A stretch of DNA of 64,000 nucleotides from a virus (lineage: Duplodnaviria > Caudoviricetes), in IMG/VR virus record IMGVR_UViG_2827231811_000003, positions 930-64,929 of that record; one strand, written 5' to 3'. The first letter of the stretch is position 1, and each line of letters begins with the position of its first letter. The position numbers were made by a program, and so were the translations under genes. Under the pieces are notes generated by a model. It was not told the origin of the DNA. It did no database searches and worked only from the letters and a program-made list of their open reading frames with translations. Shown here piece after piece: positions 18,045 to 60,962 of this stretch.

Positions 18045-18062
18045 CGGCCACGATTTCGCCAG
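18045..18062 (-). promoter_or_regulatory. Late-gene motif CTGGCGAAATCGTGGCCG upstream of tape measure
   Basis: Exact 18-mer ending 32 nt before the start. Confidence 0.7.
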
Positions 18063-18113
18063 GCAACGCGCTGAGCTTGCAGTCAGGATAACGGTGTGGG
18101 TCTGGGGTGCAGG

Positions 18114-18704
18114 TCAGCCGCGCCCGATTTGCGCCATGGCCTGCATGAACGAGTTCGCTTCGACCTCGTCCGACCACGACGCCGGCGCGGGATCGCGGGG
18201 TTTGCCGGACATGGTTCGCGGCGGTGGCGGACCCCAGATTTCGTGATCCAGCCTGCCCAGTTCCGTGTCCTTGGTGCACAGGGAACGTCGCCAGTAGTAC
18301 GCCGCCGACAGCAGTCGGCCGATCGGCTGGGCGAGCGGGTCAACGCCGCGGGTGTAGGACCAGCCGTCGAAGATCATCCAGTTGCCGTACACCGACCCGG
18401 CGAGGCGTGTGGCGGCGTACAGGTCCATGCCGCACAGATCGCCCAGCACGGTCTCGGCGACGTTCTCCAGGTCGTCGAGGTCGAACGGGTCGTCCGGGTC
18501 ACGCAGGCGCAGCCACAGCCGCTCGGGGCCGTCGCCGTCGAGCTGAGTGGGAATGAGGTGCCACCAGCACCCCGGCGGGTCGAGGACGAGTGCGTCGAGG
18601 ATCGTGCGCGTGTCCAGCTCCGGCAGGGTGTAGGTGTCGTCGTCGACGGCGAACGTGATCGGCAGCTGCGCAGGTGGACCCAGCCGTCGGTCAGCTGCGC
18701 GCAC
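18114..18704 (-). CDS. Tail assembly chaperone-like protein
   Basis: Just upstream of TMP; RLRDPDDPFDLDDL motif; own AGGAG SD. Confidence 0.65.
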   Translation of the reverse strand: MRAADRRLGPPAQLPITFAVDDDTYTLPELDTRTILDALVLDPPGCWWHLIPTQLDGDGPERLWLRLRDPDDPFDLDDLENVAETVLGDLCGMDLYAATRLAGSVYGNWMIFDGWSYTRGVDPLAQPIGRLLSAAYYWRRSLCTKDTELGRLDHEIWGPPPPRTMSGKPRDPAPASWSDEVEANSFMQAMAQIGRG

Positions 18705-19377
18705 GGGCGCGGCGCTCCTGGCGGTTCAGACCAGGCTTCCACGCTTCGATGAGGTGCTTGACCATCTCGGCGACGTGGATCAGTTCCAGGTCGTCGTCGC
18801 GGCTTCGGAGCCTGCGGTTGATCATCCAGGCGTCCTGCTCGGTCAGCGCGGCGTCGAGGAACAGCGCGACGAGCCATGCCTGCTGGCCGGTGTTCGCGCC
18901 GGTGGCCAGGGAGGCGGAGGTGAACAGCAGGACGATGTCTTTCGGCGGGTAGGCCGTGAGCTGGATGTCGAGGTCGGGCAGCTCGACCGGGATTTCCCGG
19001 TCGGTCGGTGGTGTGTAGTCCGAAGTGACCACGACAGGATCGGGTTCGTAGTGCGGGTCGTCGTCGGGCCAGTTCGACCACCGCTGGACCAGGCCGGTGA
19101 GCATCGTCAGGCACGCGTCCAGGTTCACCGGGTCGTTGAACTCGCAGATGCGCTCGAAGAACCGTTGCCGGTCCTGCGGTTCGAGGGTGCCTTCGACGAA
19201 GTCGAGCACGGCCATCGCCTGGTCGGCCTCACCCACGGACTGGCCAGCGACCTGTTGAGCGAAAAACAGCACCGAGTCCTTCGGCCGCTGCACGGTGATG
19301 TGTTCGCCGCACAGGTCGACCTGTACGGGCATCGGCGTGCGTTTGGAGCGTGGGGTCTCGAACGTCAGCGTCTTCAT
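18691..19377 (-). CDS. Tail assembly chaperone with tandem duplicated domain
   Basis: PKDSVLFF / PKDIVLLF internal repeat; position before TMP. Confidence 0.6.
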   Translation of the reverse strand: MKTLTFETPRSKRTPMPVQVDLCGEHITVQRPKDSVLFFAQQVAGQSVGEADQAMAVLDFVEGTLEPQDRQRFFERICEFNDPVNLDACLTMLTGLVQRWSNWPDDDPHYEPDPVVVTSDYTPPTDREIPVELPDLDIQLTAYPPKDIVLLFTSASLATGANTGQQAWLVALFLDAALTEQDAWMINRRLRSRDDDLELIHVAEMVKHLIEAWKPGLNRQERRARARS

Positions 19378-19412
19378 CCGGGAGCCTCCAGGTCAGGGTG
19401 GATGGTTCCCGG

Positions 19413-19430
19413 CGGCCACGATTTCGCCAG
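19413..19430 (-). promoter_or_regulatory. Late-gene motif upstream of tail chaperone
   Basis: Exact 18-mer ending 36 nt before ATG 19377. Confidence 0.7.
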
Positions 19431-19467
19431 TCCCGGCAGTCGCCAGCGTACGCGGATCGAGGGCATG

Positions 19468-19502
19468 AAAAAGCCCGCCCCGGGATTGCTCACGGGGCGG
19501 GC
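19468..19502 (-). terminator. Intrinsic terminator
   Basis: 10 bp GC stem GCCCGCCCCG/CGGGGCGGGC followed by TTTTT on the minus strand. Confidence 0.65.
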
Positions 19503-24161: not shown

Positions 24162-24629
24162 ATGACGACGTTCGCGACCTGCTCGTACTACGAATTCCGG
24201 CGCGAGATGGGCATCCCCGTGCGCTCCAGCCTCGGATTCCCGAAGTTCACGCTGAAATACCCGCTGGTCCACGCCATGCCCGACACCTACCCGAAGCGAC
24301 AGTGGCTCCGCGGAGTCGACAAGCGCGAGTTCGTCGACCTGTACCGCACGATGATCGAAACGAAGGGCGTGGAGCGGCTGCGCGAGCAGGCCGCCGAGAT
24401 CCGCGCTCAGGAGCAGGCGTTGCGTGCTGACGCGGCCGACCTGCCGGTGGTGCTGCTGTGCTTCGAGCGCTGGGACAACCCGAAGAAGCAGCCCGAGTAT
24501 TGCCACCGGCACGTGTTCGCCGCGGTGTGGCGCGACCTGACCGGCGAAGACGTGCCGGAGTTCGGCGCCATGCCGCGGCCGGAGACGAAAGCGCAGGAGC
24601 GCGCGGCCGATCAGTTCGGCCTGTTCTGA
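24162..24629 (+). CDS. DUF488-family protein
   Basis: VVLLCFE..YCHRHVFA motif. Confidence 0.7.
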   Translation: MTTFATCSYYEFRREMGIPVRSSLGFPKFTLKYPLVHAMPDTYPKRQWLRGVDKREFVDLYRTMIETKGVERLREQAAEIRAQEQALRADAADLPVVLLCFERWDNPKKQPEYCHRHVFAAVWRDLTGEDVPEFGAMPRPETKAQERAADQFGLF

Positions 24630-25303: not shown

Positions 25304-26203
25304 TCAGCGGACGTTCATCCAGTCCGCGATCATCTTGTCGAGCAGCTGCCATGGCTTGCCGGCCTCGATCTCTCCGGAGTCGGTGGCGGTCTTGAGGGCC
25401 TTCGTCATGGCCGCTGCTGTGGTCGCTGGGACGGTCCGAGAGCCGAAGACCACCTCCAACCCGACGTGGCCTTGATGCAGCGGCTCCGCCGATTCTGGGG
25501 ATAGGTAGCCCTCTTGCAGGTCGGTCAGGTGGTTCTCCGTCAGCGCGATCAGCACGCCGAGCGCGGTGGCGACGTTGCCGATGTTGTGCGAGCTGTGCGC
25601 TGCGGCGAGTGCGTCGAGCATCGGGTTGTAGTCCCGGTAGGCGGCCAGCCAGGTCTCGTCGACGGCCTTGCTCAGCGATTCCAGGGCGTCGCGGGCGGCG
25701 TCGGCCTCCGGCGGCAGGAACGTCAACTGCACGGTGTGGAAATCGAGGTTGGCCTCGGACAGGCTCTCCAGGTCGACCTTGTCCAGCAGTTCCAGGGTCT
25801 TGTCGTCGAGCCCGGCGTAGCCGCGGTAGTCGATGTCCTCGATGGATTCGTAGAGCTGCTTGAGGATCGCGATGTCGTCCTCGCCCTCGATGGCGTTGTG
25901 CGACAGCTGGAGCGCGACCTGGCGGGCTTTCGGCAGGTTCTGGGTGATGAGTTTGCAGTCGGCCTCGACAATGCCGGCGTCCACGGCAGCTTGCACGCGG
26001 TGGTTGCCGGACAGGATCAGCTCTCGGCCCTCGTCATACTCGCCGCCGGAGTAGATCAGCGGCGTGGAGGTCAGCTCCCCGTCCTCGCGCAGGTTCTCGA
26101 CCAGCCGCTGGTAGGTCTCCTGCCGCATGTAGCGGGCGTTCGTGTCCAGCGGGGTCAGGTCGGCCAGCGTGCGGCGGACGATGGTGGTGTCGAGCTTCGT
26201 CAT
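25304..26203 (-). CDS. ParB/Sulfiredoxin-like N-terminal domain protein
   Basis: NARYM, ILSGNHRVQAA and LSHNAIEGEDD motifs. Confidence 0.85.
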   Translation of the reverse strand: MTKLDTTIVRRTLADLTPLDTNARYMRQETYQRLVENLREDGELTSTPLIYSGGEYDEGRELILSGNHRVQAAVDAGIVEADCKLITQNLPKARQVALQLSHNAIEGEDDIAILKQLYESIEDIDYRGYAGLDDKTLELLDKVDLESLSEANLDFHTVQLTFLPPEADAARDALESLSKAVDETWLAAYRDYNPMLDALAAAHSSHNIGNVATALGVLIALTENHLTDLQEGYLSPESAEPLHQGHVGLEVVFGSRTVPATTAAAMTKALKTATDSGEIEAGKPWQLLDKMIADWMNVR

Positions 26204-26790
26204 GTGCGCACTCCTGCGTACTCGTCGTGGAGGGTGTCGCCGGTCCACAGCGCCAGTTCGAGCGCGAGCACGAGGTCGTCGTGACCGGATGCGGCCTCGT
26301 GCTTGTGGTAGCCGGATCGGGTCGGTCGGCGGGCGAACCTGCGCAGCTGGTCCATCGTGGCCACGCCGCCGTCGCTGTCGGGCAGGGAGATGCCGGACTG
26401 TTCGAGCGCGACTTGGAGCGTTTCGGTCAGCCGGTGTTTGCCGACGGTGTAGTCGTGCTCGTCCGTGCGGGCGAGGGTGCGGGAGCTGCCGATGGTGATC
26501 GCGCAGATGTGCAGGCCGGGCCGGTTCCGGCGGGCCATTTCGACCACGGCCGCTCCGATGCCGGTGGCGTCGATCGACAGCACGGTCTGGTGCCCGGCGG
26601 CGTGGAACGCGCCCGCGAGGCTGGTCGCCATCTTCGCCAGGTCCAGGTACTCGGTGCCGAGTTCGATGTTGCCGATCTCCAGCACGGACCAGTGCGGGCG
26701 GTGGCTGTTCGGCCGCGGGTCGCCGGAGTGCAGCACGCCGAGGGCGGCGGGGTCGTGTTCGCGGCCGACGTCGAGCCCGATGGAGATCAT
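26200..26790 (-). CDS. Stand-alone terminase large-subunit nuclease (RNase H fold) domain
   Basis: IGLDVGREHD, IDATGIG and GHDDLVLAL acidic triad motifs; no ATPase domain. Confidence 0.75.
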   Translation of the reverse strand: MISIGLDVGREHDPAALGVLHSGDPRPNSHRPHWSVLEIGNIELGTEYLDLAKMATSLAGAFHAAGHQTVLSIDATGIGAAVVEMARRNRPGLHICAITIGSSRTLARTDEHDYTVGKHRLTETLQVALEQSGISLPDSDGGVATMDQLRRFARRPTRSGYHKHEAASGHDDLVLALELALWTGDTLHDEYAGVRT

Positions 26791-28118: not shown

Positions 28119-28151
28119 CGAATGCTCACCTTCTCCCGGTAGGTGAGCGTC

Positions 28152-28169
28152 CGGCCACGATTTCGCCAG
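28152..28169 (-). promoter_or_regulatory. Late-gene motif upstream of the modification operon
   Basis: Exact 18-mer ending 34 nt before ATG 28118. Confidence 0.7.
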
Positions 28170-28182
28170 TCGACGCCAATCG

Positions 28183-28254
28183 AGCGCCGGGCCGGAATCG
28201 AACCAGGTAGCTCCCCACCGGGAGTGGGGTGTGTTGCCGTTACACCACCAGCGC
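28183..28254 (-). tRNA. tRNA-Gly (anticodon CCC), no encoded CCA
   Basis: Manual cloverleaf: GCGCTGG/CCGGCGC acceptor, GTGT/ACAC D-stem, CCCCA-CTCCCGG-TGGGG anticodon arm, GGTTCGATTCC T-loop, U73; one C49-C65 mismatch. Confidence 0.75.
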
Positions 28255-28318
28255 ACGTCGAACGGGTCGGAGAGTAACACCCGACGCCGACATGGTCTTA
28301 CACTCGCTGGCACCGGGT

Positions 28319-28335
28319 CTGGCGGATCGTGGCCG
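28319..28335 (+). promoter_or_regulatory. Late-gene motif upstream of small terminase
   Basis: CTGGCGGATCGTGGCCG, 41 nt before the start. Confidence 0.65.
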
Positions 28336-28375
28336 CCGGTAGCACTGCACATGCGCGCTACCGGGAGGCCGCTCG

Positions 28376-28924: not shown

Positions 28925-29728
28925 GTGCGGATCGTCTCCAAGCTGCTGATCGAGCATCACCCGCCGCTGGTGATGGCTCGTTCCGGGCTGTCGCCGGACG
29001 TGTGGCAGTCCCGCCTGCTGCACGACCGGCCACATCGGGCGATCGTCGTGTGCTCCCGGCAGGCCGGCAAGAGCACCGTGTGCGCGGGCAAGGCGCTGCA
29101 CCGGGCATTCACCGACCCGAACGCCGAGATCGTGGTCGTGTCACCGACGCAGCGGCAGTCCACGCTGCTGGTCAGCAAGGTGCGAAGGTTCGCCGAAGCG
29201 CTCGGGATCGAGCTGACCCGGGACGCGGCGACGTTCCTGCGCTTGACCAACGGGTCGACGATCTACGCGCTGCCCGGCCACGCCGACACGGTGCGCGGCT
29301 ACTCGCCCGAGCTGCTGATCATCGATGAGGCTGCCTACACCGCCGAGGACCTGTACACCGCGTGCCTGCCGATGTTGGCCGCGACCGGCGGCGATCTGGT
29401 GGCGATCTCCACACCGCGAGGCCGGGACGGGTGGTTCTGGCACGAGTGGAACGGCGAGGGCGCCGACGGGTGGGAGCGCATCGAAGTGCCGTACACCGAG
29501 ATCTCGCGGATCTCCGAGGAGTTCATCACCCAGCAGAAGGCGTCGATGTCGGCCGAACGGTTCGCCGCCGAGTATGAGTGCAGCTTCAACAGCTCGACGT
29601 TCGGCCTGTTCAACGCCGCCGACATCGCGGCCGCCGGCCCCCGCCCGTTGCCGGACGAGGGCGGGCTGCCAGACCCGTGGCAGATCATGGCCCGTAACCG
29701 GGCTCCGTTCCAGGCGGCCGCGTCATGA
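28925..29728 (+). CDS. Terminase large subunit, ATPase domain only
   Basis: SRQAGKST Walker A, LLIIDEAA Walker B, ISTPRG coupling motif; only 267 aa. Confidence 0.85.
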   Translation: MRIVSKLLIEHHPPLVMARSGLSPDVWQSRLLHDRPHRAIVVCSRQAGKSTVCAGKALHRAFTDPNAEIVVVSPTQRQSTLLVSKVRRFAEALGIELTRDAATFLRLTNGSTIYALPGHADTVRGYSPELLIIDEAAYTAEDLYTACLPMLAATGGDLVAISTPRGRDGWFWHEWNGEGADGWERIEVPYTEISRISEEFITQQKASMSAERFAAEYECSFNSSTFGLFNAADIAAAGPRPLPDEGGLPDPWQIMARNRAPFQAAAS

Positions 29729-30537
29729 CCCGCGAAGTCCGCACCGATGCGCCCGACGCGCCGGACGCGCGCGTGCTGGCGCTCGATGTCGGCGCCTACG
29801 GCCACAAGGGCTCGATCTCGGCGATGTTCTGGTACCGCCAGGGCGGCCACCTGCACGCCCACGCCTCGGACCTGTTGCCGCCGGAGGCGACGGTGCGCGA
29901 CCAGCTCGACGTCCTTGAGGGGCTGGCCGAGTCCTACCCGGAGTACTGGCGGGTCTCGCCCGTGGTGGTGATCGGGGTGACCGTGCTGTCGGGAGAGGGT
30001 CGTCGCGAGGTCCGTCAGCACCTGGCCGACTGGTACAACCCTCCGACCCGGCGACGGCTGGTCGCGGTCGGCGACTACGCCGGCGAACAGTCCGGCGGCC
30101 GCGGTCTGGTCCCGCGGAAGAAGCTGCGCGACATGATCGCCCAGCGGCTCACGGCGCACACCCTGCATCTGACCAGCACGCAGCAGGAGGCGGTGTCGCT
30201 CTACAGCGGGCGGCGAGCCCGGCCGGTGCATGACGCGGACATCGACGGGTGGCGCCACGACGACACCGACGCGATCGCGTTGCCGGTGGCGCTGTCGTGC
30301 CTGGCGGCCCGGTCGTTGCTGCCGCCGCCGATGCCGACCGCGGAGCAGCGGTGGCGGCAGAAGGACCGGCTGGTGCGGGCTTGGCAGATCGAGATGGGCC
30401 TGTCCGAGCAGGAGGCCCACGAGCAGGCCCACCGGCACGGCCATCCGCGCGCGTTCCAGGCCACGACGACGAGCGTGTCGATGGCCATGCCCTCCCCTGA
30501 CGTTCCTGCTCTGAACCTGCCTGTGAAAGGGGCGTGA
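29725..30537 (+). CDS. Degenerate terminase-nuclease-like protein
   Basis: LALDVG and HDDTDAIAL retained; IDATG replaced by IGVTV; ATGA-coupled to the ATPase. Confidence 0.55.
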   Translation: MTREVRTDAPDAPDARVLALDVGAYGHKGSISAMFWYRQGGHLHAHASDLLPPEATVRDQLDVLEGLAESYPEYWRVSPVVVIGVTVLSGEGRREVRQHLADWYNPPTRRRLVAVGDYAGEQSGGRGLVPRKKLRDMIAQRLTAHTLHLTSTQQEAVSLYSGRRARPVHDADIDGWRHDDTDAIALPVALSCLAARSLLPPPMPTAEQRWRQKDRLVRAWQIEMGLSEQEAHEQAHRHGHPRAFQATTTSVSMAMPSPDVPALNLPVKGA

Positions 30538-32483: not shown

Positions 32484-32665
32484 AATACACCCCAGAAGAC
32501 ACGCGCCCCGACGGCCACATGTGGTTCAAGAAGTTCGCTGACGCCATCGGCCAGGCCGACCGGCGTGCTGCGCTGACCCGGTACCGCTACCGCGTCTACT
32601 ACGACCCGGCGAATCGCTGGTGGAACATCCGCGCGACGCACCGGCCCGTGGAAATCGATGACTGA
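32480..32665 (+). CDS. Small hypothetical protein
   Basis: ATGA overlap. Confidence 0.5.
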   Translation: MKYTPEDTRPDGHMWFKKFADAIGQADRRAALTRYRYRVYYDPANRWWNIRATHRPVEIDD

Positions 32666-34034
32666 GAACCGTCCGCACCGCCTGGCGGTGCTTCGTGAGC
32701 GCGTCGCTGAGCTCTCGTTCCCGTCGACGCCGTCGTCCGAGGTGTCGGCGTTGCTCGGGGAGTGGTTGGGCGAGGTGTACGCCAGGTCGGTGGCGACGGG
32801 CGATACGTACTGCTCGCATCTGGGTGCGCTGCTGGGTTGGTGTGCGGCCGAGGCGGTGGATCCGGTGTTGTTGGATCGGCGGGCATCGGCTCGGCTGGTG
32901 GATTGGTTGGCGTCGGCGCCGTCGCCGTCGACGGGCCGGGTGCGGACGCCGTCGGCGATCAACGGCGTGCTGTCGGCTGGTGTTCGGTGGCTGAGGTATT
33001 GCGAGGCGGCCGGGCAGCGGCCGGAGGGTCCGATTCCCCTGTCGAAGGTGGATCGGCCGTCAGTGAGTCGCTCAGGGCGCAGCGCGCGGTTGCGGCGGGA
33101 TGACGTGCACCGGCTGGTGTTGGCGGCGCGTGAGGATCACGTGCTGGGTGGGGTGCAGGCCAAGGCCATCTTGGCGACGTTGGCGCTGGTCGGGGTGCGT
33201 CCGACGGACCTGTGCCGCCTCGACCTTCACGATGTACACGATGCCGACGGCGGGACGTATGCGCTGGACCTGACGGGCAAGGGTGACAAGAAGCTGGTGC
33301 GCTGGGTGCCGCGTGTGGTGGCGGCGGACTGGTACGCCTACCTGTCGCGGGCGCGTGTCGAACCGGCGTCGGGTGAGGCGCTGCTGGTGCATCCGAGGCT
33401 GTACCGACGAGTGAACCGTGACGACGTGTTGGCGTTGGTCAAGCGGGCGGCGAGGCGGGCGGACGTGGCGGACCCGTGGCGGTTGACCGCTCGCGACTTC
33501 CGGCACTACTTCGCGACGGCGACCCGTTCGGTGTCGGATCTCCAGTCCCGCCAGCGGGCGCTCGGTCACTCCAGTCCGGCGACAACGGAGCTGTACGACG
33601 ACACGGCGTGGTCGATGGAGCTGGACCCGGCGATCCGCCTGGCCGCGGTGCACGACGACTACCCGGCTGAGGAGCTGACGCGCCCGTTGGCGCACGCCAT
33701 GCCGGCCACGCCGGTGGCGTCCGGGAAGCACGAGTGCGACTGCACGCCGCAGTGGAAGAACGCGCGCGTGTGGGCCGAGGCCGTCGGTGTCGACGAGTGG
33801 TGTCGCATCGAGATCACCGAGGCGTACGGGCCGGGTGTGCTGGCGGCGCTGCCGAATCCGGTGTGTGCGACGTGTTCGGCGACCTATCTCGGACCGTTCC
33901 GACTGCGGGCGGACCGGTCGTTCGATGCGCAGGCTGCGGAGATGGTCGACGAGCAGCTGCGCGAGTGGGACCGGTATCCGGAGGCGATGCAGCGGTCCGC
34001 GGAGCGTCGCCGCGACGTCGGGGACGAGTCGTGA
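32658..34034 (+). CDS. Second tyrosine recombinase with Cys-rich C-terminal extension
   Basis: GVRPTDL, GKGDK, RDFRH and LGHSS..TELY; CDC and CATC downstream. Confidence 0.8.
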   Translation: MTENRPHRLAVLRERVAELSFPSTPSSEVSALLGEWLGEVYARSVATGDTYCSHLGALLGWCAAEAVDPVLLDRRASARLVDWLASAPSPSTGRVRTPSAINGVLSAGVRWLRYCEAAGQRPEGPIPLSKVDRPSVSRSGRSARLRRDDVHRLVLAAREDHVLGGVQAKAILATLALVGVRPTDLCRLDLHDVHDADGGTYALDLTGKGDKKLVRWVPRVVAADWYAYLSRARVEPASGEALLVHPRLYRRVNRDDVLALVKRAARRADVADPWRLTARDFRHYFATATRSVSDLQSRQRALGHSSPATTELYDDTAWSMELDPAIRLAAVHDDYPAEELTRPLAHAMPATPVASGKHECDCTPQWKNARVWAEAVGVDEWCRIEITEAYGPGVLAALPNPVCATCSATYLGPFRLRADRSFDAQAAEMVDEQLREWDRYPEAMQRSAERRRDVGDES

Positions 34035-37311: not shown

Positions 37312-37610
37312 GTGACGACGAACGTCCCGTGCACGACGTCGCGGTGACGGTGTTCGCCCGCTGCGAGGGCGTGGACTACGGGGAAGCCGCCAACCTCGCC
37401 ATGGCGGCGGTGAGGTCTCTGTTCCGGCAGCACGGTACGACGCAGGACGACGGAAGCCGCCGGCTAGTGCTGCACATGCGGGATGAGGACGTACCGGTCG
37501 ACGTGCACTACGTCACGGAAGCTGGTCAGGCCGTCCGCAGCGGCTACTTGTGGCTCCATCCGACCAAGCAGGCGTACCCGAGGGCGGATGAGAGCCAGCT
37601 CCCGAGGTGA
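37308..37610 (+). CDS. Hypothetical protein
   Basis: GGAGG SD, GTGA overlap. Confidence 0.55.
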   Translation: MSDDERPVHDVAVTVFARCEGVDYGEAANLAMAAVRSLFRQHGTTQDDGSRRLVLHMRDEDVPVDVHYVTEAGQAVRSGYLWLHPTKQAYPRADESQLPR

Positions 37611-43673: not shown

Positions 43674-44000
43674 GTGACGAACGTGTATTGGCGAGACCGC
43701 GCCGCATGTCGCAATGAGGACCCGGACCTGTTCTTCCCGGACGGGACGAAGGACGCGATGAGCAAGTGGCAGCTGGCCACGGCGAAATCCGTGTGCGCCC
43801 GCTGCCCGGTCGCGAACGAATGCCTGGCCGACGCGATCACGCACCCCAAGCACTGGGGCGTGTTCGGCGGACTGGATGCAGACGAGCGCCGGGCCATGGT
43901 CCGCGCCCACGAGCGCACGCTGACGAACACCGACTCGGACGGCGGGCAGCCCCGAATGCCGGCCGGTCCGCGGCTCGCCGGGGTTTCCCCGAGCACCTGA
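43674..44000 (+). CDS. whiB: WhiB-family transcription factor
   Basis: WRDRAAC, DLFFP, CARCPV..C and GVFGG motifs (four Cys). Confidence 0.92.
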   Translation: MTNVYWRDRAACRNEDPDLFFPDGTKDAMSKWQLATAKSVCARCPVANECLADAITHPKHWGVFGGLDADERRAMVRAHERTLTNTDSDGGQPRMPAGPRLAGVSPST

Positions 44001-46735: not shown

Positions 46736-48862
46736 TCAACTCTGCGTAATCAAAGCGGCGGTGGAGCGGTACGCGCTGCCACGACCGGCGACCTGCTCCA
46801 ACCGGCCCGAATCCTTGAGTCGGCGAAGCTCAACTTGCAGCGATGCGTCCGTCACCGACTCGTCCCCCAGCTGGAACAGACCGGCGAGGATCTGGGCCTT
46901 CGTCATGCCCTCCGGCGCCTCGTCGAGGAGCTGGAAGATCCGCGCGGCACGCGTAGCGGCGCCGCTCGACTGCGGCTCCCGAACCGTCGGCGTCGCCGCG
47001 CCGGCCGACCCCACCGACGTCGCCGACGGCACCGGCGCCGGAGCGGACTCGGCGGCCGCCGGCTGCTCACTGCTCCACCCCGCGGCGGCGATGATCGCGT
47101 CGACCTCGGACATCACCTGGGCCTTCGCCTCGGCCTGTTCCGGCGACTCCGACGGCGTCTCCTCACCGTCCGCGTTCCGCAGGTACGCCACGTACTCCTC
47201 GGTGGCGTAGTGCGTCATCCCCGCCCAGTACGGACCCAGGAACTTCGCCGATCCGGCGTCGAGGTCGTAGTCGTTGCCCATCCGCGCCCTGGCGACGTCC
47301 TCCACGGTCAATCCGTCGTGCAGCTTCGCCCGCTTCGGGTCCATCTCCTGGATGTAGGGCGCCTTGACCTTGACCGGCTCGGCGTCGTCGGTGTCGAACC
47401 AGAACTCGCCCTTGTGGCGCGGCATCGGGAGCTGCTGGTCGCCGAACGCTCGGTAGAGCTCGCCCTGGTCCTTGGTGCGGAACAGGGTCTGACCTGCGAT
47501 GTTGGCGTTGATATTGCCCCCCGCGTCCCCCCAGTTGTCGTTGGTGCCGCGCTGGGCCGCCAGGTGCAGGTGGATGCCCGCGCTCCCGGCGCCCTTGGTG
47601 ATCATGTCCGCGAGCTGGGACATGGTGTAGTTCCGGCCGTCGAACTCGGCCTTCGTGGTCTTGATCTGGAGACCGAAGCTGGCCTCGTCGTACTCGATGA
47701 TCACGGTCTTGAAGTCGCCCCGTGCCGAGTACGGCTGCGACTGCCGCCACCGGGCCAGCTTCATCATCTGCGCGAGCAGGTCGGCGGTGTCCTGCGCGCC
47801 CCGCACCGCGCGGATCGGCATCTTGTAGCTCGTGCCGACGAACGGCTCAATCCACCCGCCGACCGCGTCGTAGACCTTCTCGGTGCCGCACGCGATGACC
47901 AGCGCCGACGTCCAGCACCGGGTGAGATAGGCGATCTTCACGTGCACCAGCGACGACTTGCCCGAGCGGGACTTGCCGACGTCGGCCCAGTGAATGTCGA
48001 ACCGCGCGTAGATCGGCGACCCGTCGATCTGGTATCCGACCAGACCAGCGGTTTCGATGTGCGCCAGCGACGGGTCGTCCACATACGGAATGACCGCGGC
48101 CATGACGTCCTCGGTCATCACGGTCACCGTGTACGTGCCCGCACCGGCCAACTTGTTGATGTGCACCCAGTCGGTTTCGAGCGGCTGGCCCAGCTCCTCG
48201 GAGAACGCGATCGCGATCGGCTCGATATCCGAGCTGGACAGGCCGACCTTGCCCTCGCCCTTGTCGCCGTTGGCCTCTTGCTTCGCTCGCTGCTTGGCGG
48301 CCATCTTCGACGGAACGCGCACGTCGAACCGCACTCCGACGGCTTTGTCGCCGCGGGATACGGACTCCCACTTCATCACCGTCAGCCAGCCGTGGCCGGA
48401 GCGCTTGAACGCGTTGTTCGCGATCTGGATCGTCGGGTCCCACTGCGCCGGCTGCGGCGCGGCCTCCACCTCGGACGCCTGCCGCTTCTCCAGCTTCGGC
48501 TTCACCTTGTAGAGCACGTACTCCTGATAGCGCGCGAACCCGTACTCGACGACTGCCAGCACCACCCCGCACGCGAGCCACAGCAGCCATAGACCGGGCG
48601 AGACCAGCACGAACACCGCCAACGCGAGGTTCGCGAGCACGGCACAGGTCAGCAGGTTCTTGATCCGGTCGCGGTCCTCGATCGACAGCGTCTCGAACGC
48701 CTCGTCGACAGCCTTCCGCGAACCGAGCGCCACCACCCCGGCCAGGACGATCACCAGCGGAAACGCCAGCAGTCCCGGAACGTGCAGCAGCGCCAACAGC
48801 AGCGACACCGCCAACGTCACCAGCGCACCCAGCGCGGCGAAGAACGTCTTGTACGGAATCAC
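46736..48862 (-). CDS. traB: FtsK/SpoIIIE-family conjugative DNA translocase (TraB-like)
   Basis: N-terminal TM helices; GKSRSGKS Walker A; IIEYDEA Walker B; LAAQR; C-terminal wHTH. Confidence 0.8.
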   Translation of the reverse strand: MIPYKTFFAALGALVTLAVSLLLALLHVPGLLAFPLVIVLAGVVALGSRKAVDEAFETLSIEDRDRIKNLLTCAVLANLALAVFVLVSPGLWLLWLACGVVLAVVEYGFARYQEYVLYKVKPKLEKRQASEVEAAPQPAQWDPTIQIANNAFKRSGHGWLTVMKWESVSRGDKAVGVRFDVRVPSKMAAKQRAKQEANGDKGEGKVGLSSSDIEPIAIAFSEELGQPLETDWVHINKLAGAGTYTVTVMTEDVMAAVIPYVDDPSLAHIETAGLVGYQIDGSPIYARFDIHWADVGKSRSGKSSLVHVKIAYLTRCWTSALVIACGTEKVYDAVGGWIEPFVGTSYKMPIRAVRGAQDTADLLAQMMKLARWRQSQPYSARGDFKTVIIEYDEASFGLQIKTTKAEFDGRNYTMSQLADMITKGAGSAGIHLHLAAQRGTNDNWGDAGGNINANIAGQTLFRTKDQGELYRAFGDQQLPMPRHKGEFWFDTDDAEPVKVKAPYIQEMDPKRAKLHDGLTVEDVARARMGNDYDLDAGSAKFLGPYWAGMTHYATEEYVAYLRNADGEETPSESPEQAEAKAQVMSEVDAIIAAAGWSSEQPAAAESAPAPVPSATSVGSAGAATPTVREPQSSGAATRAARIFQLLDEAPEGMTKAQILAGLFQLGDESVTDASLQVELRRLKDSGRLEQVAGRGSAYRSTAALITQS

Positions 48863-48943
48863 GAAAGCCCTCCAAGGTGGGGTGCTGGTCCGGCCCCGGG
48901 CCGGGCAAGAAACGGGGCCGGACCAGCGGAAATGCCAGTCGGA

Positions 48944-51052
48944 TCAGAGAGTGATCGAGTCGGCCTTGGCCTGGTAGCCGGAGGCCATGCCGCGGTGCTC
49001 CTGAGCCTCGGTCTCGGCCTTCTCCGCAGCGCGCAGCAGCTGCTCGCGCTTGCCGGCCATGCCCTTGTTGCCTTCGAGCCCGGCCGCCTCGGCACGGAGG
49101 CTGTCGGCCTGCTCCTGGTACTGGACCGCCTGCGAGCTGGCCTCGTCGGATGCCTCACGCAGCGACGTCCTCATCGTCTCCGGCGTCGTCGGGTCCAGGT
49201 TTGCGCTGTACACAGCGGTGTCAGCCATGGTGTTTCCCTTCTTCTTCGTGGTGTGTTCCTGCGATCCCCGGTCCTCCACAGGCGGGGGCGGGGAGTTCAT
49301 GAAGTCCTCGTCGGACACCGGCGCCGACTTCTTGGCCTTGTCCGACTTCGTGCTCGGTGCCGTCTCGGCCGGCACCATCGGGAACCCGTTCTCGTCGAGG
49401 TCGGCGACGTCCTCGTCCTTCACCGAGGCGCCTTCCGACCGCGACGAGGTCGTGGTCTCGTCCTTCGTCTTCTTGCTGGTCGGAGCCGCCGTCCGCGTCG
49501 GCATCCCGGCCTCGTCGATGCCGAGTTCGTCGATCGTGCGGTCGATCTCGCGCCGACGTGCCTTGTCCTTGCGCCGCTGATTGCGCGACTTCCGCGGCTG
49601 ATCCGTGACGGCCTGCTGCTGATTGGCGGTGGTCGTCTCCTCAGTAGCGGCGGCGTCACCACCGCCACGGCGGCGCCCGCGGCGGCGACGCTTCTTGTCT
49701 CCGTCACCGTTCTGCTGATCAGGGCCAGATTCGGCCTGGTTGCCCTGCTCATCCGACTTCGAGTCGGCCTTCTGATCCGCGCCCTTGTTCCGTCGCCACG
49801 GCCGCTTCGCCTTGTCCGCTACCGCGGCCCCGGCACCGCCCGACTGGCCACCGCCACGACCGTCCTGGCCATTGCCGCGCGACTGGGAACCGTTCTGTTT
49901 GCGCTGGTCGCCGCCGCGGCGCCACCTGCTTCCACCGGAACCGCTGCCCGACCCGCCGGCCGAACCGCCACGACCCTTCCCGGAAGCACCGCCCGCACCA
50001 GCACCAGCACCGGCGCCAGTACCGGCGCCGCTGCCGCCTCGGCCTCGTCCTCCGGAACCGCTGCCACCCGAGCCGCTGCCCGTGTGATGGCTCGCCGACG
50101 AGCGTTTCGACGTCGACGACCCCGAACCACTGCCCGAACCAGCCTTGAACGGGTTCCGCGACTGCTTGTGCGCATTGCTGCTCCCCGCCGCTCCGGACTG
50201 GCCGCCACGGGCACGACCGGCGCCACCAGTCGCGCCGCCGGTCGTGCCCGTCGTACGCGTTGACGTGGTCGACGTCTTCGACGCCTGACCACCAGAACCG
50301 CCAGCCGTGGACTTCGAACCCCGCTTGAATGGGTTCCGCGAACCACCGGACGTACCGCTTCCCGTGGTCGACGCCTTCGACGAGGTGCCCGTCGAAGAAC
50401 CGTTGCCGGTCGAACGAGCAGCCCGCGCCGCGCCTGCCTTGCCACGACCGATCGATCCCGTTGGCCGGTTCGGTGACGCCTTGCCGTGCCCGATCTTCCC
50501 GCCGGTGGGGCCGCGACCTGCGGAACCACCGCCGCCGAAGCGGCTACGGAGACCGCCACTGCTTCCAGGCCCACCGGACCCGCGTCGACCAGCGCCACCG
50601 CCCCAGTTCCGCGGGTTCAGCCGCGAACCGCCACGATGGTTACTGCCGACACCGCGCGAGGCGCCCGGCGCCGCCGCTGCCTTCGATTTCGATCCGCCCT
50701 TGCCCTTGAGCAGGTAGTGCAGGCCCATCCCGGCCAGCACGAGGAACACCAGACCGAACATCACAGCAGCGGCGACCGGAGACTGCTGATACATCGCCAC
50801 TCCTGCCACCAGGGCCGCCGTCGGCACCGCCACCATCAGCAGCTTCGCCTTCGGCACCCCGGACTGCGTCTTGTCGTTTCCGCTGGTCGTGCCCGTCGAC
50901 TCCGACTTCGACTTCGACGAGCTGGTCTTGTCGCCGTCCTCGGACGGCGCCTTGTCCTGCTTGGCCGGCGGCTGCGTGGTGTGCTCCGCACGACGCGCGA
51001 ACACGTCCGGCTGTGTCTGCGGTGCCTGTCCACCAGTGGCGCTATCGGCCAT
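48944..51052 (-). CDS. Membrane-anchored Gly/Ser-rich transfer accessory protein (Spd/TraA-like)
   Basis: Two TM helices then a long low-complexity tract; directly upstream of traB; probable nested start at 49228. Confidence 0.5.
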   Translation of the reverse strand: MADSATGGQAPQTQPDVFARRAEHTTQPPAKQDKAPSEDGDKTSSSKSKSESTGTTSGNDKTQSGVPKAKLLMVAVPTAALVAGVAMYQQSPVAAAVMFGLVFLVLAGMGLHYLLKGKGGSKSKAAAAPGASRGVGSNHRGGSRLNPRNWGGGAGRRGSGGPGSSGGLRSRFGGGGSAGRGPTGGKIGHGKASPNRPTGSIGRGKAGAARAARSTGNGSSTGTSSKASTTGSGTSGGSRNPFKRGSKSTAGGSGGQASKTSTTSTRTTGTTGGATGGAGRARGGQSGAAGSSNAHKQSRNPFKAGSGSGSGSSTSKRSSASHHTGSGSGGSGSGGRGRGGSGAGTGAGAGAGAGGASGKGRGGSAGGSGSGSGGSRWRRGGDQRKQNGSQSRGNGQDGRGGGQSGGAGAAVADKAKRPWRRNKGADQKADSKSDEQGNQAESGPDQQNGDGDKKRRRRGRRRGGGDAAATEETTTANQQQAVTDQPRKSRNQRRKDKARRREIDRTIDELGIDEAGMPTRTAAPTSKKTKDETTTSSRSEGASVKDEDVADLDENGFPMVPAETAPSTKSDKAKKSAPVSDEDFMNSPPPPVEDRGSQEHTTKKKGNTMADTAVYSANLDPTTPETMRTSLREASDEASSQAVQYQEQADSLRAEAAGLEGNKGMAGKREQLLRAAEKAETEAQEHRGMASGYQAKADSITL

Positions 51053-55946: not shown

Positions 55947-56363
55947 TCAGAGCAGTCGGCCGTCCTTGAGCATGGCGTCGTACTCCTCCTGGGTCTGCGG
56001 CACGGTGACACCCTCGCCGTCGAAGAAGTTCACCAGCGCTTGAGCGACTACGTCCTGGATGTCCATGTCGTTCTGCGCTGCGTAGGTGCGCACGATCCGC
56101 TTGAGCACGACGGGCATGTTGCAGTTGAACGAGCGCCACTCGAACGGATCGAGCTTCTTGTTCGTGCGCTTCCGGCGCCGCGGGAACCGCAGGACGTTCT
56201 CAGCGTCGCCGCTGGTCGGGGGCTGCTCTGCCGGTTCGGGTTCCTGCTGTGCCTGCTGGGCAGGAGCTGGTTCCGGCAGGGGAGCGGTGGCAGGTGTTTC
56301 CGGGTCGTCGCGCCAGGACCGGCCGGTGGCCAGCGGGCTCGGTTTCCGGTCGGCAGCCATCAA
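55947..56363 (-). CDS. ParA partner, ParG-like RHH centromere-binding protein
   Basis: Flexible N-terminus; C-terminal FNCNMPVVLKRIVRTYAAQNDMDIQDVVAQAL. Confidence 0.7.
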   Translation of the reverse strand: MMAADRKPSPLATGRSWRDDPETPATAPLPEPAPAQQAQQEPEPAEQPPTSGDAENVLRFPRRRKRTNKKLDPFEWRSFNCNMPVVLKRIVRTYAAQNDMDIQDVVAQALVNFFDGEGVTVPQTQEEYDAMLKDGRLL

Positions 56364-57196
56364 AGCGTCACCTCCGAGCGGGCCATGATGCGGTCGATGG
56401 CCCAGCCGTAGACCTCACCGGCCAGCACGCGCAGGCGAGCGTCCTTCGACTCGTCCAGCCCGACACCCGCGTTGATCTCCGTCTTGATCTTGTTCCACAA
56501 CGGCACCACCTTCGAGGTGTCCTCGGCCGACGCCCACACCTCGGCGTCCGGGAAGTGGCCGGCGATGTCGCCGAGCTTGTCCCTCTCGTCGCTGGTGCCG
56601 CGCCACTTCGAGATCAGCACGCCGGACCAGGCCAGCGACTTGTTGTTGTAGGAGCGGACCTGTTCGACCGTGTCCCGCAGCAGGGCCAGGCCCTGGGTGG
56701 ACCACCTGTCGGCCTCCATCACCACGAGGACCTGTTCGTCATCGTGCGCAGCCAGCGCGTTGACCAGCAGATATCCCAACGCCGGGGCGTTGTCGATCAG
56801 GATCAGGTCGAAGTCGGCGATCACGGGGGCCAGTGCCTCGCGCAGGCGGTACTCGCGGCCGTGCTGGGCGGCGCCGATGCGGTTCTGCGCGGTGATGAGC
56901 GTGTTCTCGTTGGTCACCGGGGCAAGCCACGTCCGGTCCCAGATCGTGTCGACGATGACGTCCTCGATGGAGATCGCGCCCTCCGGCACGATCGTGTCCG
57001 CGATCGAGACGGACGTGGGGGAGAGCGTTTCGACGCTGAGCGCGTCGGTGGTGTTGGCCTGCGGGTCCAGGTCTACGACCAGCGTTTTCAGGCCCTTAAC
57101 GGCCGCTGCGCGGGCGAGGTTGATGATGCTCGTGGTTTTGCCGACGCCGCCCTTCTGCATGGCGGCCGCGACGACGCGTGCCTGATTTTCAGGCAT
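56360..57196 (-). CDS. parA: ParA partition ATPase (type Ib)
   Basis: QKGGVGKTT, DLDPQAN and LILIDNAP motifs; no N-terminal HTH. Confidence 0.92.
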   Translation of the reverse strand: MPENQARVVAAAMQKGGVGKTTSIINLARAAAVKGLKTLVVDLDPQANTTDALSVETLSPTSVSIADTIVPEGAISIEDVIVDTIWDRTWLAPVTNENTLITAQNRIGAAQHGREYRLREALAPVIADFDLILIDNAPALGYLLVNALAAHDDEQVLVVMEADRWSTQGLALLRDTVEQVRSYNNKSLAWSGVLISKWRGTSDERDKLGDIAGHFPDAEVWASAEDTSKVVPLWNKIKTEINAGVGLDESKDARLRVLAGEVYGWAIDRIMARSEVTL

Positions 57197-57412: not shown

Positions 57413-57519
57413 TACTGCTGGTCAGCTCGCGGGGAAGAGGTTCACACGATCCGGCGGCGCGCCGGTGCGAACACCCAATCGGGTGGTTTAGCGGTTCTAG
57501 TGTGGCGTTCGTGGACGAG

Positions 57520-58384: not shown

Positions 58385-58424
58385 ATCACCGCTACGATCG
58401 GCCGCGACGCGTTGAACGTGCCGT

Positions 58425-58441
58425 CTGGCGGATCGTGGCCG
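58425..58441 (+). promoter_or_regulatory. Late-gene motif upstream of MuF/protease
   Basis: CTGGCGGATCGTGGCCG, 29 nt before the start. Confidence 0.65.
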
Positions 58442-58469
58442 GGCACCCCTGGACCCCCGGTGGTGTGCT

Positions 58470-60287
58470 GTGCCCGATCAGGCCGACGATCCGTGGCTGC
58501 CGAAGCGGCGCCGCGGCCGTATGCGGCTGATCCGCGCTGAACAGGCCATGAGCAGGGCCGCGCGGGCGGCGATGTCGAAGTTCCTCGACGCCGCCCGCGC
58601 GGCCATCCTCGGCGACACCACCCGCGCCGACGCCGGACCCGCCGACCTGCCCCCGAACGTCGACGTGTGGCCCGACCAGGCCGTGTGGAACGACGCGCTC
58701 GCGACGTGGATCGTCCCGGCCTCCGGCCAGATCTACTCCGACGGCTACTGGCAGGCCATGCCCGACGGCGCCCGCGACGAGCCGCGGCTGTCCGACCAGG
58801 ACTACGTCGACGCGCACATGCGCGACACCACCGAACGTCTCACCGGCGCAACGTGGCCCGACGAGGTGTACGAAGCCGTGCGCCGCGAAGTCGCCGACGG
58901 CCGCGACCAGCGCGAATCCATCCCCGAAGTCCGCAAACGCATCGCGAAGGTGCTGACGCTGCGGCACTGGGCCGGCTCCGCTGAGGTGATCTCGCGAACG
59001 GAGTCCATCGCCGCGCTCAACGCCGGCCACCACCAGGCCGGCAAACGTCGCCAGGAGGTGTTCGGCGAACGCCTCTTCAAGCAGTGGATCGCCACGAGCG
59101 ACGGCCGCACCCGCGACACCCACCGGGCCGCGAACGGCACCGTCGTGGCCTCCGACGACCTGTTCGTCATCGGCTCGTCCCGGCTGCGCTACCCACACGA
59201 CCCTCGAGGCCCGGCCTCCGAAACCGTCCAGTGCCGCTGCGTCCTGAACTGGGTCGACGAAACCGAGGTCGACCCCGAACAGATCCGCGACCAGCAGTTC
59301 GACCCGATCCAGACCGACAACCAGGGGAGGCCCGTCGTGGACACCACCGACGACCTGACCGCCACCGCCGCGCCCGAAGAAGTCGCCGACACCGCGGCCG
59401 CGGCGGACACGAGCACACCGGACGACCAGCCCGTAGTCGCCGACGGCGGACCGGGATGGGCCGACGCCGTCATCGCGTCCACCCCCGAACTGCCGCCAGG
59501 GGAGTGGTTCACCGACCCTGGACTGGACCAGTACGTCCGCGGCATCCGCATCACCGACGAGGGCCGGGTGTTCGGCCACATCGCCCCGTGGGACGTCGAC
59601 CACGAGTCCATGCCCGGCATCACCGCGCCCCGCCACGGCACCGCCGCCGCCTACGCCAAGTTCCACCGGCACCCGGTGATGACCGCCGACGGCGGCCGCG
59701 TGCTGACCGGGCCGCTCGCCACCGCCCGCCTCGGCGAACCCAAGGGGCATGCCGAGCTGACCGTGACGCTCCCCGACGTCATGGACCACTACGACGACCC
59801 GAGCTTCGTCGCCGCCGACGTCGTGGCCGGCGAAGACGAACACGGCATCTGGTGTGCCGGCGCGCTCCGCCCCGGCGTGACGCCGTTTCAGGTGCACATG
59901 CTGTCCCGCTACTCGATCTCCGGTGACTGGCGGAACGGCGAGCTGGTCGCGGCCTGCTCGGTCACGACGCCCGGCTTCAACAAGCCGAGCGCCGAGGCGA
60001 TCGCGGCCGCGGCCGCGGGCGACCCGTCAGGCGTGGGACAGCGCACCGCGCTGCCGTTCGAGGACCGGCCGCGGGCACAAGTCGCCGCCGACGGTCACGT
60101 GTCCGCGCTGGTCGCGGCCGGAATCGGCCACCCCGGCGACCCCGCACCGCCACCGGTCGACGGGTGGCGGCTGTACCGCGAGTTCCGGGCGGCCGAAGCC
60201 GCCGACAAGCGCATCACTGCCGCCCGACGGCGGTTGTCCAACCCCAGAGCTCTCGCCGCAGCCGCGCGAGTGAGGAAGGAGCAGTAA
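58470..60287 (+). CDS. MuF-like head morphogenesis / capsid maturation protease fusion
   Basis: KQWIATSDGRTRDTH and PHDP..ETVQCRC; C-terminal GRVFGHIAPW and GEDEHGIW. Confidence 0.8.
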   Translation: MPDQADDPWLPKRRRGRMRLIRAEQAMSRAARAAMSKFLDAARAAILGDTTRADAGPADLPPNVDVWPDQAVWNDALATWIVPASGQIYSDGYWQAMPDGARDEPRLSDQDYVDAHMRDTTERLTGATWPDEVYEAVRREVADGRDQRESIPEVRKRIAKVLTLRHWAGSAEVISRTESIAALNAGHHQAGKRRQEVFGERLFKQWIATSDGRTRDTHRAANGTVVASDDLFVIGSSRLRYPHDPRGPASETVQCRCVLNWVDETEVDPEQIRDQQFDPIQTDNQGRPVVDTTDDLTATAAPEEVADTAAAADTSTPDDQPVVADGGPGWADAVIASTPELPPGEWFTDPGLDQYVRGIRITDEGRVFGHIAPWDVDHESMPGITAPRHGTAAAYAKFHRHPVMTADGGRVLTGPLATARLGEPKGHAELTVTLPDVMDHYDDPSFVAADVVAGEDEHGIWCAGALRPGVTPFQVHMLSRYSISGDWRNGELVAACSVTTPGFNKPSAEAIAAAAAGDPSGVGQRTALPFEDRPRAQVAADGHVSALVAAGIGHPGDPAPPPVDGWRLYREFRAAEAADKRITAARRRLSNPRALAAAARVRKEQ

Positions 60288-60290
60288 GCC

Positions 60291-60494
60291 ATGGCCTGCA
60301 AGAACTGCGGAGGCAAGAAGTCCGGGGCGTCCCGCCCGCCCGCGATGACCGGCGCGGCCACCGCCCAGACCAGCGCCGACGGCCCGACCTACCGCGTCGT
60401 GCTCGCCAACGGCGCGACGATCACCGCCCGCTCCCACTGGGACGCGGTGCAGAAGCAAGCGATGTACGGCGGAGCTATCGAAGAGGTCAAGTGA
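60291..60494 (+). CDS. Small head-operon protein (MACxxCG)
   Basis: AAGGAG SD. Confidence 0.6.
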   Translation: MACKNCGGKKSGASRPPAMTGAATAQTSADGPTYRVVLANGATITARSHWDAVQKQAMYGGAIEEVK

Positions 60495-60589
60495 GCCGCC
60501 GATCCCAGAACGTCCCGCAAGGACGGCTCCGCACGCTGATCGGTCAGCGAGTCCGCGGAGCAATCACCCAGTTGAGAGAGAGGAACCCC

Positions 60590-60823
60590 ATGACCGCTCC
60601 CGCCCCGCAGAAGTACGAGGTCAGCGACATCAACGGCGAGACCTACGTGTGGTCCGGTGTGGATCCGTCGACGGTCCCGTTCGGCGTGTTCACGTGGGGC
60701 GACGGCCGCACCGGCACCGACATCGTGTGGCTGCACTGCGACGACCACTCGTTCGTCAACAGCTCGCAGGTGGTGTCTCTCAAGCCCATCAGCGACGACG
60801 ACGCCCAGCAGACCCAGCAGTAG
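60590..60823 (+). CDS. Hypothetical protein
   Basis: GAGAGG SD before ATG 60590. Confidence 0.55.
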   Translation: MTAPAPQKYEVSDINGETYVWSGVDPSTVPFGVFTWGDGRTGTDIVWLHCDDHSFVNSSQVVSLKPISDDDAQQTQQ

Positions 60824-60945
60824 ACGACCGAACGCCGACACGAGCGGAATCCCCATCTGCACAGAGTCGGCTCGCTGAGATACCCTCTCGACAAGCGTTG
60901 CCTCTGCCCAGGCATGAGGGCGAGCGACGTAGTTCAGTAGCACGT

Positions 60946-60962
60946 CTGGCGAATCGTGGCCG
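60946..60962 (+). promoter_or_regulatory. Late-gene motif upstream of major capsid
   Basis: CTGGCGAATCGTGGCCG, 35 nt before GTG 60997. Confidence 0.65.

Follow-up and report, generated by a model that had tools for sequence, protein, structure and literature searches.

How does a tailed phage keep its virion and packaging genes under common control when these genes lie in separate, oppositely oriented blocks? This question is raised by a stretch of viral DNA of 64,000 nucleotides (nt) (Duplodnaviria; Caudoviricetes), hereafter the window, which comprises bases 930-64929 of the 64,929-base IMG/VR virus record IMGVR_UViG_2827231811_000003 and in which a nearly invariant motif of 17-18 nt precedes six such blocks. 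An earlier note on this DNA took the motif for a phage-specific late promoter or activator site. We find that it is the conserved apex of a small RNA hairpin, denoted H1, with a basal stem of 5 base pairs (bp) that is free in sequence. H1 is a base-paired, strand-specific element that is kept before the same genes in related phages, and we consider it a new and well-supported cis-regulatory hairpin in the leaders of late actinophage genes.

Six motif copies and the genes behind them

Three identical 18-mers (CTGGCGAAATCGTGGCCG) are located on the minus strand at 18045, 19413 and 28152, and three 17-mers on the plus strand at 28319, 58425 and 60946. A search with the 18-mer that allowed at most 3 mismatches gave four matches, namely the three 18-mers and a 3-mismatch match at 30856, compared to the 0.37 expected from shuffles, and four matches were reached in 0 of 100 shuffles. 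Across the entire 64.9 kb record, a pattern search recovered the same six copies whereas the reversed pattern, run as a control, gave none; this is the genome-wide scan that the earlier note had proposed as a check. Two covariance models were scanned over the window: model R1, built from the six window copies, produced six matches at 44-48 bits, with the next best at 15 bits, and model R2 produced six matches at 34-42 bits, with the next best, inside a coding region, at 21 bits.

All six copies are co-oriented with the downstream gene and end 28-40 nt before its start codon. By family matches, these genes encode the tape measure protein (PF10145), the tail assembly chaperone (PF23781), a Dam-like protein with a GNAT domain, the small terminase (TerS; phrog_6299), the MuF protein (PF04233) and the major head protein (phrog_777); the Dam-like gene is the first of an operon that contains a ParB-like gene, and the TerS gene is followed by those for the large terminase (TerL) ATPase and the portal. 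The earlier note had thus placed the six dispersed sites, the identity of three of them, the coding-strand orientation and the associated genes correctly; the position ahead of start codons stands as well, and only the distance given for it, 29-41 nt, has to be changed. An additional weak copy that it had assigned to the DUF1360 gene (57503-57517) has to be dropped, being missed by both covariance models, overlapping the DUF1360 start codon and lacking a stem.

The motif as the apex of an RNA hairpin

The bases that flank the core pair with each other, and their sequence varies from copy to copy (GCGUC/GACGC, GUGCC/GGCAC, ACCGG/CCGGU and others). The statistics on structure were obtained with an alignment (A5) of 30 H1 copies from 7 phages, in which the consensus reads N5, a G-N-C bulge, UGGC, a loop, GCCG and N5', the loop comprising 5-10 nt with G first and UG last. 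Standard pairs occupy 95.6% of the cells, compared to 75.5% in column shuffles, and sliding the partner column drops pairing to 26-45% of the cells. The covariation score is 0.533 vs 0.143 in shuffles, a value that 0 of 500 shuffles reach. Compensatory changes are seen at all five pairs of the basal stem (P1) and also at the closing pair of the apical stem (P2), where C-G changes to A-U and U-A. One U.G pair is invariant, and the other pairs include 10 G.U vs 4 A.C cells, a strand bias. Pairing preserved by compensatory change, the generic criterion for a structured cis-regulatory leader RNA, is therefore what H1 displays. The near-identity of the 17-18-mers is local to the window phage: in its relatives the loops vary between copies, and the bulge, apical stem and loop ends are invariant across phages with capsids that are 39-56% identical. 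Rfam contains no match to the hairpin at gathering thresholds or at E <= 1, and only the tRNA was found in that search.

In the window, H1 spans 18040..18069 (minus strand; core 18045-18062; P1 GCGUU/GACGC) in the tape-measure leader, 19408..19437 (minus; core 19413-19430; P1 CCGG/CCGG) in the leader of the tail assembly chaperone and 28147..28176 (minus; core 28152-28169; P1 GCGUC/GACGC) in the leader of the operon for the Dam-like/GNAT, nuclease-like and ParB-like proteins. On the plus strand, it spans 28312..28340 (core 28319-28335; P1 ACCGG/CCGGU) in the TerS/TerL/portal leader, 58418..58446 (core 58425-58441; P1 GUGCC/GGCAC) in the MuF leader and 60939..60967 (core 60946-60962; P1 GCAC/GUGC) in the major-capsid leader.

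Promoter-type boxes upstream of H1

Because a -10-type TANNNT box lies upstream of every copy, H1 appears to be transcribed, downstream of host-type promoters that possess a -10 element only. In 26-nt windows drawn at random from these genomes, such a box turns up only 1-2% of the time, and yet it is present upstream of 17/17 of the H1 copies that were counted first. Nine of these boxes are located 7-19 nt from the stem and six 35-53 nt from it; at site 3, the Dam-like operon of the window phage, the box lies beyond a tRNA gene, and in the copy K7 it is 76 nt away. The 13 copies examined later show a like pattern; overall, the distance from box to H1 varies from 7 to ~95 nt. The window phage and its closer relatives have a long spacing (41-61 nt) in their capsid leaders, and the more distant capsid leader L211 has its box 8 nt from the stem. 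No conserved -35 or other upstream box is visible ahead of the late -10 boxes.

The boxes of the window are TATCCT in the tape-measure leader (18085..18090, minus), TACGCT in the chaperone leader (19445..19450, minus; 7 nt before the H1 stem), TACTCT for the Dam-like operon (28271..28276, minus), TACACT in the TerS leader (28299..28304, plus; 7 nt before the stem), TACGAT in the MuF leader (58393..58398, plus) and TACCCT in the capsid leader (60881..60886, plus; 52 nt before H1). The box of the Dam-like operon is found ~20 nt upstream of a tRNA-Gly(CCC) gene (28182..28254, minus) that intervenes between box and hairpin, with its 3' end 6 nt from H1, and would drive the tRNA, H1 and the operon together. 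In the related provirus G003, a tRNA-like gene with an aberrant anticodon loop (67930-68002, minus; L386:7930-8002; 'tRNA-???' in the ARAGORN output) occupies the same place, 13 nt upstream of the Dam-leader H1.

The window contains only 74 TANNNT sequences, both strands counted, and the intergenic ones consist of six boxes of the type TA(C/T)NCT in GC context, which have an H1, and nine early boxes (GTTAAGAT-ATTATATAAC), which have none, as the earlier note had maintained for early genes. The early boxes are a second, separate promoter/operator class. They are AT-rich, GTTA(A/T)GAT(G/A)ATTATATAAC, and are located on the plus strand at window positions 19665, 22282, 23040, 34092, 37704, 38106, 39575, 42605 and 43640, each 29-94 nt ahead of a rightward non-structural gene.

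A motif that lies within the leader, and whose distance from the -10 box changes from copy to copy, cannot be the promoter. More generally, a reading of the 17-18 bp as a duplex site, be it a late promoter or the target of an activator or repressor, as the earlier note proposed, would accommodate the six near-identical copies in the phage, the constant orientation and approximate placement of these copies with respect to the genes, and the proximity of genes for a small helix-turn-helix (HTH) protein and a WhiB protein. Covariation of the flanks, however, is meaningless for duplex DNA; the conserved halves stand 5 nt apart in some copies and as many as 10 nt apart in others; and the -10 box lies at widely differing distances upstream, with a tRNA gene in between at site 3. 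No sigma factor gene was found in the phage, and a search of the phage for a T7-type RNA polymerase gave no match but is uninformative because its control also failed; three host genomes lack a match to Sigma54_DBD, control genomes being positive; and the regulators that were proposed are not conserved together with the motif. A DNA-binding site is, in our judgment, improbable.

A second hairpin at the Shine-Dalgarno sequence

In every leader, another hairpin, H2, is found between H1 and the start codon. Its 5' arm reuses the 3' arm of the H1 basal stem, and its 3' arm ends at the Shine-Dalgarno (SD) sequence or, in most MuF, tape-measure, chaperone, Dam and TerS leaders, contains it; in the capsid leaders the SD follows directly after H2 and is free. 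H2 lacks a U tract. In the window, H2 together with the SD occupies 18014..18044 (minus) in the tape-measure leader, where it shares the H1 3' arm; 19378..19412 (minus) in the chaperone leader (CCGGGA...UCCCGG, SD inside); 28119..28151 (minus) in the Dam-like leader (GCUCACC...GGUGAGC); 28336..28375 (plus) in the TerS leader (CCGGUAGC...GCUACCGG-GAGG); 58442..58469 (plus) in the MuF leader (GGCAC...GUGCC region, with an SD-like GGUGGUG in the 3' arm); and 60963..60996 (plus) in the capsid leader (CACAAC...GUUGUG and then the free GGAGG).

The overlap of the two hairpins proved specific to each leader when H1 3' arms were swapped among the 30 leaders. Paired with the downstream leader, the leaders' own arms sum to -195.4 kcal/mol, compared to -121.8 +/- 11.1 kcal/mol for the arms of other copies (z = -6.6; 0/20,000 permutations); the test was also run on the first 17 copies. 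In free folds, H2 and other pairings are favored by ~11 kcal/mol over H1, and the predicted SD accessibility increases from 0.34 to 0.48 when H1 is enforced (p = 2e-4). The two hairpins are thus predicted to be mutually exclusive in many leaders, and as modeled their arrangement has the layout of a factor-stabilized switch. Pairing of the H1 apex with the translation initiation region was considered as well and turned out to be unspecific (-14.3 vs -13.3 +/- 3.7 kcal/mol in 67 control genes; p = 0.24).

We propose that each of the six late blocks would be transcribed from its own host-type, -10-only promoter (TA(C/T)NCT), yielding a leader that carries H1 and then H2, the latter ending at or inside the SD. 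A trans-acting RNA-binding factor would recognize the invariant apex and bulge and clamp the H1 basal stem; H2 would thereby be weakened and the ribosome-binding site opened, and the 5' end of the mRNA might be protected too. All late cassettes would in this way be switched on together, post-transcriptionally. That H1 functions as a factor-dependent leader switch, acting on translation or on mRNA fate, has in our estimate an even chance of being correct. The more specific proposal, that a dedicated RNA-binding late regulator, encoded by the phage or hijacked from the host, flips H1/H2 and so licenses six or more separately promoted late cassettes, H1 then representing a new class of cis-regulatory RNA in actinobacterial phages, is put forward tentatively, with a probability that we place somewhat below even.

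Several points weigh against a leader switch. The overlap of H1 and H2 is strong in only 12/30 leaders and is weak in the majority of capsid leaders, whose SD is free whichever of the two hairpins forms, and energy models of short GC-rich leaders are noisy, so that the folding results are indicative only. Because orthologous leaders retain similar stems, the independent covariation events are few, with perhaps ~6-8 independent stem types, not 50, behind the signal. The positions of the transcription start sites, the late timing and any trans-factor are all inferred, and no RNA-binding protein was identified among the candidates, none of which has a recognizable RNA-binding domain. Furthermore, the predicted unpaired 5' stretch before H1 ranges from ~0 to >40 nt, and because it is so variable, a uniform role in 5'-end protection is unlikely.

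It is also conceivable that the leader acts in cis only, with H1 serving as a 5' stabilizer or processing landmark, H1/H2 setting a fixed, gene-specific level of translation, and the timing coming from the promoters, for example through a WhiB-type activator of -10-only promoters. Several leaders indeed have a -10 box that ends 7-10 nt before the stem, which would put H1 at the extreme 5' end; in the window phage and G003, removal of the tRNA by processing would likewise place H1 close to the 5' end; and the promoters lack a -35 element while the window phage has a WhiB gene. Many leaders, however, would have 8-50 unpaired nt before H1, a bulge, apical stem and loop ends that are invariant at 39-56% capsid identity exceed what a passive stabilizer needs, and neither G003 nor the Kutzneria element described below yielded a WhiB match. 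We therefore regard a purely cis-acting leader as unlikely.

Distribution of H1 in related phages

Among named phages and plasmids, no capsid is above ~29% identity to that of the window phage, and a query with the single capsid sequence reached only relatives at <=32% identity, which lack the hairpin. A large protein database contains capsid relatives at 45-61% identity, the closest (P0002) at 61%, and the closer relatives could be reached with a capsid alignment (A3) as the query, which led to loci in IMG/VR, GTDB genomes and JGI metagenomes. Every closer relative reached in this way carries the hairpin, and across 80 loci from distant capsid relatives model R1 finds none. Seven H1 copies are located in a prophage of Kutzneria viridogrisea DSM 43850, which also contains the best H1 match of the whole 10.2 Mb Kutzneria genome; the 91 kb provirus G003 has six copies; the partial records G004, G005 and G006 have two to four each; and the loci L209 and L211 contribute a single copy apiece, located ahead of the capsid gene. 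In G006, a tandem H1 pair precedes the capsid gene (L395:19325-19405), the second member having a defective 5' basal arm. The 118 kb record G001, which appeared on both the motif and the capsid lists, has a single partial match only, which we attribute to chance.

By protein synteny, H1 precedes the MuF, capsid, tape-measure, Dam-like and TerS genes in the window phage, the Kutzneria prophage and G003; it precedes the tail chaperone gene in the window phage and G003, and the MuF and capsid genes in G004-G006. The hairpin thus heads the same virion, packaging and modification blocks in relatives and is missing from the nine early promoters, which agrees with the coordinated late regulon envisaged in the earlier note. 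The divergent pair of Dam and TerS hairpins is kept in three phages, and the link drawn there between the Dam-like/ParB operon and packaging is thereby strengthened. The idea that the motif allows morphogenesis genes to sit in separate, opposed blocks survives in part: the motif travels with blocks that are differently arranged in relatives, but it does not do so as a promoter. In G003, the closest long relative, the tape-measure/tail block (37070-40002, plus; L384) and the chaperone block (48626-49456, minus; L385) are unlinked and run in opposite directions, and each of them has a -10 box and an H1 of its own, whereas the same blocks adjoin in the window.

Such rearrangement of H1-headed blocks could also be expected if the hairpins were sites of recombination or cassette mobility, that is, crossover points, either homologous, as in the PeSL (promoter early stem-loop) cassettes of T4, or for two tyrosine recombinases, at which late blocks are moved or inverted. 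Near-identical copies within one phage would fit, and two integrase paralogues are encoded at block borders. The central loop, however, varies between copies in relatives, which would block site-specific strand exchange; the -10 boxes upstream and the specific coupling to the SD indicate a role in gene expression; and the rearrangement may be a by-product of self-sufficient cassettes. We consider a recombination site very improbable. The two tyrosine-integrase paralogues are located at the borders of late blocks in the window (4245-5381 and 32658-34034, both plus); the Kutzneria element has both as well, and G003, G005 and G006 each have at least one.

Among 151 genomes of the Kutzneria family, a scan in which the covariance-model E-values proved too optimistic, only Kutzneria has a cluster of H1 matches, and most singleton matches lie inside coding frames and are due to chance; no claim made here rests on the genomes G130 or G011. 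An exact-pattern scan of IMG/VR gave at least 118 single matches per contig, the chance level for 16 GC-rich bases, and is uninformative. One singleton of the family-wide scan (genome G063) is a CRISPR spacer (L430:10276-10311) that matches the MuF-leader H1 of the window at 29/32 positions, in an array of 11 repeats of 37 nt (L430:9580-10364; contig 1, ~2,393,580-2,394,364). By this match, a genome of the Pseudonocardiaceae family carries immunity to a close relative of the phage, and the spacer links the H1 phage clade to Pseudonocardiaceae hosts. In another genome (G153; contig 25, 21953-22035; L429:9953-10035), a tandem H1 pair, one member with the exact window 18-mer, occupies part of a non-coding stretch of 2.2 kb that is flanked by a GntR/UTRA gene and dnaB, in a locus that resembles a plasmid or an actinomycete integrative and conjugative element, with ParA/ParB, DUF2637 and IS605-type OrfB (TnpB) genes nearby. 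A terminator-like hairpin follows ~90 nt downstream of the pair, and a short similar stretch is found at Kutzneria contig 11. G153 lacks a capsid gene of the H1 clade, and the tandem pair could be a remnant, a decoy RNA or part of a satellite.

Candidate factors

The factors that the earlier note had suggested, namely WhiB, the HTH protein at 43396 and the product of 41599-42279, do not track the hairpin across relatives. The WhiB gene of the window phage (43674-44000) is confirmed, and WhiB was otherwise found only in G004, with a sub-threshold match in G005. The small HTH protein has no detectable homologue in any relative, and the protein encoded at 41545-42279 has one only in G005, in addition to a marginal match in G003. 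The window phage, G003 and the Kutzneria element have just two non-structural early proteins in common, namely g35 (24162-24629) and g52, a DUF2786/DUF7168 protein (38165-38917), for which literature and Atlas look-ups on these two families gave no function. The factor could be phage-encoded and early, in which case g35 and g52 are candidates, or it could equally be a host protein.

Comparison with known systems

The arrangement of H1 and H2 is reminiscent of the Com-mom system of phage Mu, in which a small leader hairpin bound by a phage protein is located beside an inhibitory hairpin that covers the SD, and binding shifts the hairpin balance so that the late gene is translated. Com, however, acts on a single gene, whereas H1 is common to six or more operons; no Com-like zinc-finger protein was identified in the phage, and there is no sequence resemblance. 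The leaders of the RAT/BglG-SacY-LicT and ANTAR systems similarly contain a bulged, protein-stabilized hairpin that overlaps the 5' arm of a more stable downstream hairpin, but the competing hairpin in those systems is a terminator, whereas H2 has no U tract and abuts the SD, and the apex sequences are unrelated.

Like H1, the nut boxB of lambda and the put sites of HK022 are short hairpins with a conserved apex that are transcribed just downstream of phage promoters and occur at least twice per genome. Processive antitermination, with H1, alone or together with H2, as a nut- or put-like RNA that loads a factor on RNA polymerase or modifies the polymerase for terminator read-through in long late operons, thus has to be weighed. 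In addition to the position just downstream of promoters, the two-hairpin leader and the invariant apex, which recall these systems, a canonical terminator is located just upstream of the chaperone promoter. Nevertheless, nut and put serve early operons, whereas the late operons here have no evident terminators: canonical terminators on the coding strand inside these operons are at or below the shuffle expectation, which lowers this reading. Antitermination would not call for a link between H2 and the SD, such as the leaders show; some copies follow each other at just 1.4 and 2.5 kb, and each of these has a promoter of its own; and a search of the phage records gave no NusG paralogue. Antitermination is accordingly, in our assessment, a rather unlikely role for H1.

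Membership in several other known classes was considered and rejected. A sigma-70-type element does not fit: 5-10 nt separate the conserved halves, TANNNT occurs as a distinct box 7 to ~95 nt further upstream, and a consensus scan finds no sigma-70 pair at the motif. A sigma-54 promoter (-24 GG/-12 GC, GG-N10-GC) is contradicted by spacing that varies between copies and by the three hosts without Sigma54_DBD. In a hand alignment, the window core matches 9/12 positions of what we take to be the consensus of the ops element; nevertheless, an ops or RfaH-LoaP site (of the GGCGGTAGnnTG type) was rejected, given that relatives do not keep the middle bases and that four phage records contain no NusG-family match.

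The SAS repeats of Cluster K mycobacteriophages are reportedly located 3-8 bp from the start codon. These are 13-bp repeats of the GGGATAGGAGCCC type that include the SD and precede only non-structural genes, and the associated ESAS elements are 17-bp inverted repeats with arms that are conserved in sequence (PMC3203893). SAS and ESAS are the nearest described repeated start-associated motifs and, like H1, are repeated, oriented motifs upstream of a subset of genes in actinobacteriophages, conserved by gene family; H1 does not belong with them, differing in sequence, distance to the start codon (28-40 nt), class of genes (structural and packaging) and the covariation of its arms (PMC3203893).

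Implications of the leader hairpin

Late-gene control in actinobacterial phages is largely unknown, and H1 provides a concrete, conserved handle on it. Literature searches for late-leader hairpins in actinophages produced nothing direct, and we know of no late activator or antiterminator that has been defined for most actinobacterial phages. H1 is a candidate family for the catalogue of cis-regulatory RNAs. It comprises 30 nt with a clear consensus and heads the same genes in the prophage of a cultured strain, Kutzneria viridogrisea DSM 43850, so that it can be used as bait for the regulator and as a reporter element. A promoter and a leader for each block would explain the splitting of virion genes into oppositely oriented, relocatable blocks. 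If the proposed leader switch is real, the late regulon would be post-transcriptional, and each morphogenesis block would be self-sufficient and free to move or invert.

Other features of the window phage

The large terminase gene (28925-29728, plus) encodes the ATPase domain only (267 amino acids, aa), and the gene directly after it (29725-30537, plus) has no family match. A 196-aa protein encoded in the H1-headed Dam-like operon (26200-26790, minus) shows a weak match to Terminase_6C, a nuclease domain (E = 0.004). All three proteins are 60-65% identical in G003 and Kutzneria. The SsgA-like, WhiB-like and ParA-like genes are confirmed at window positions 42704-43063, 43674-44000 and 56360-57160, and two minus-strand proteins of 708 aa (46736-48862) and 702 aa (48944-51052) have no Pfam or PHROG match.

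Across the ends of the record (window 63131-64000 and 1-1103), a phrog_779 gene is followed by the gene for a head-tail adaptor, the same order as in G003 and Kutzneria, with a spacing of 2284 nt vs 2269 nt in G003. Because order and spacing agree in this way, the 64.9 kb record probably represents a whole genome in permuted form, and the CheckV completeness estimate of 53% is probably too low.

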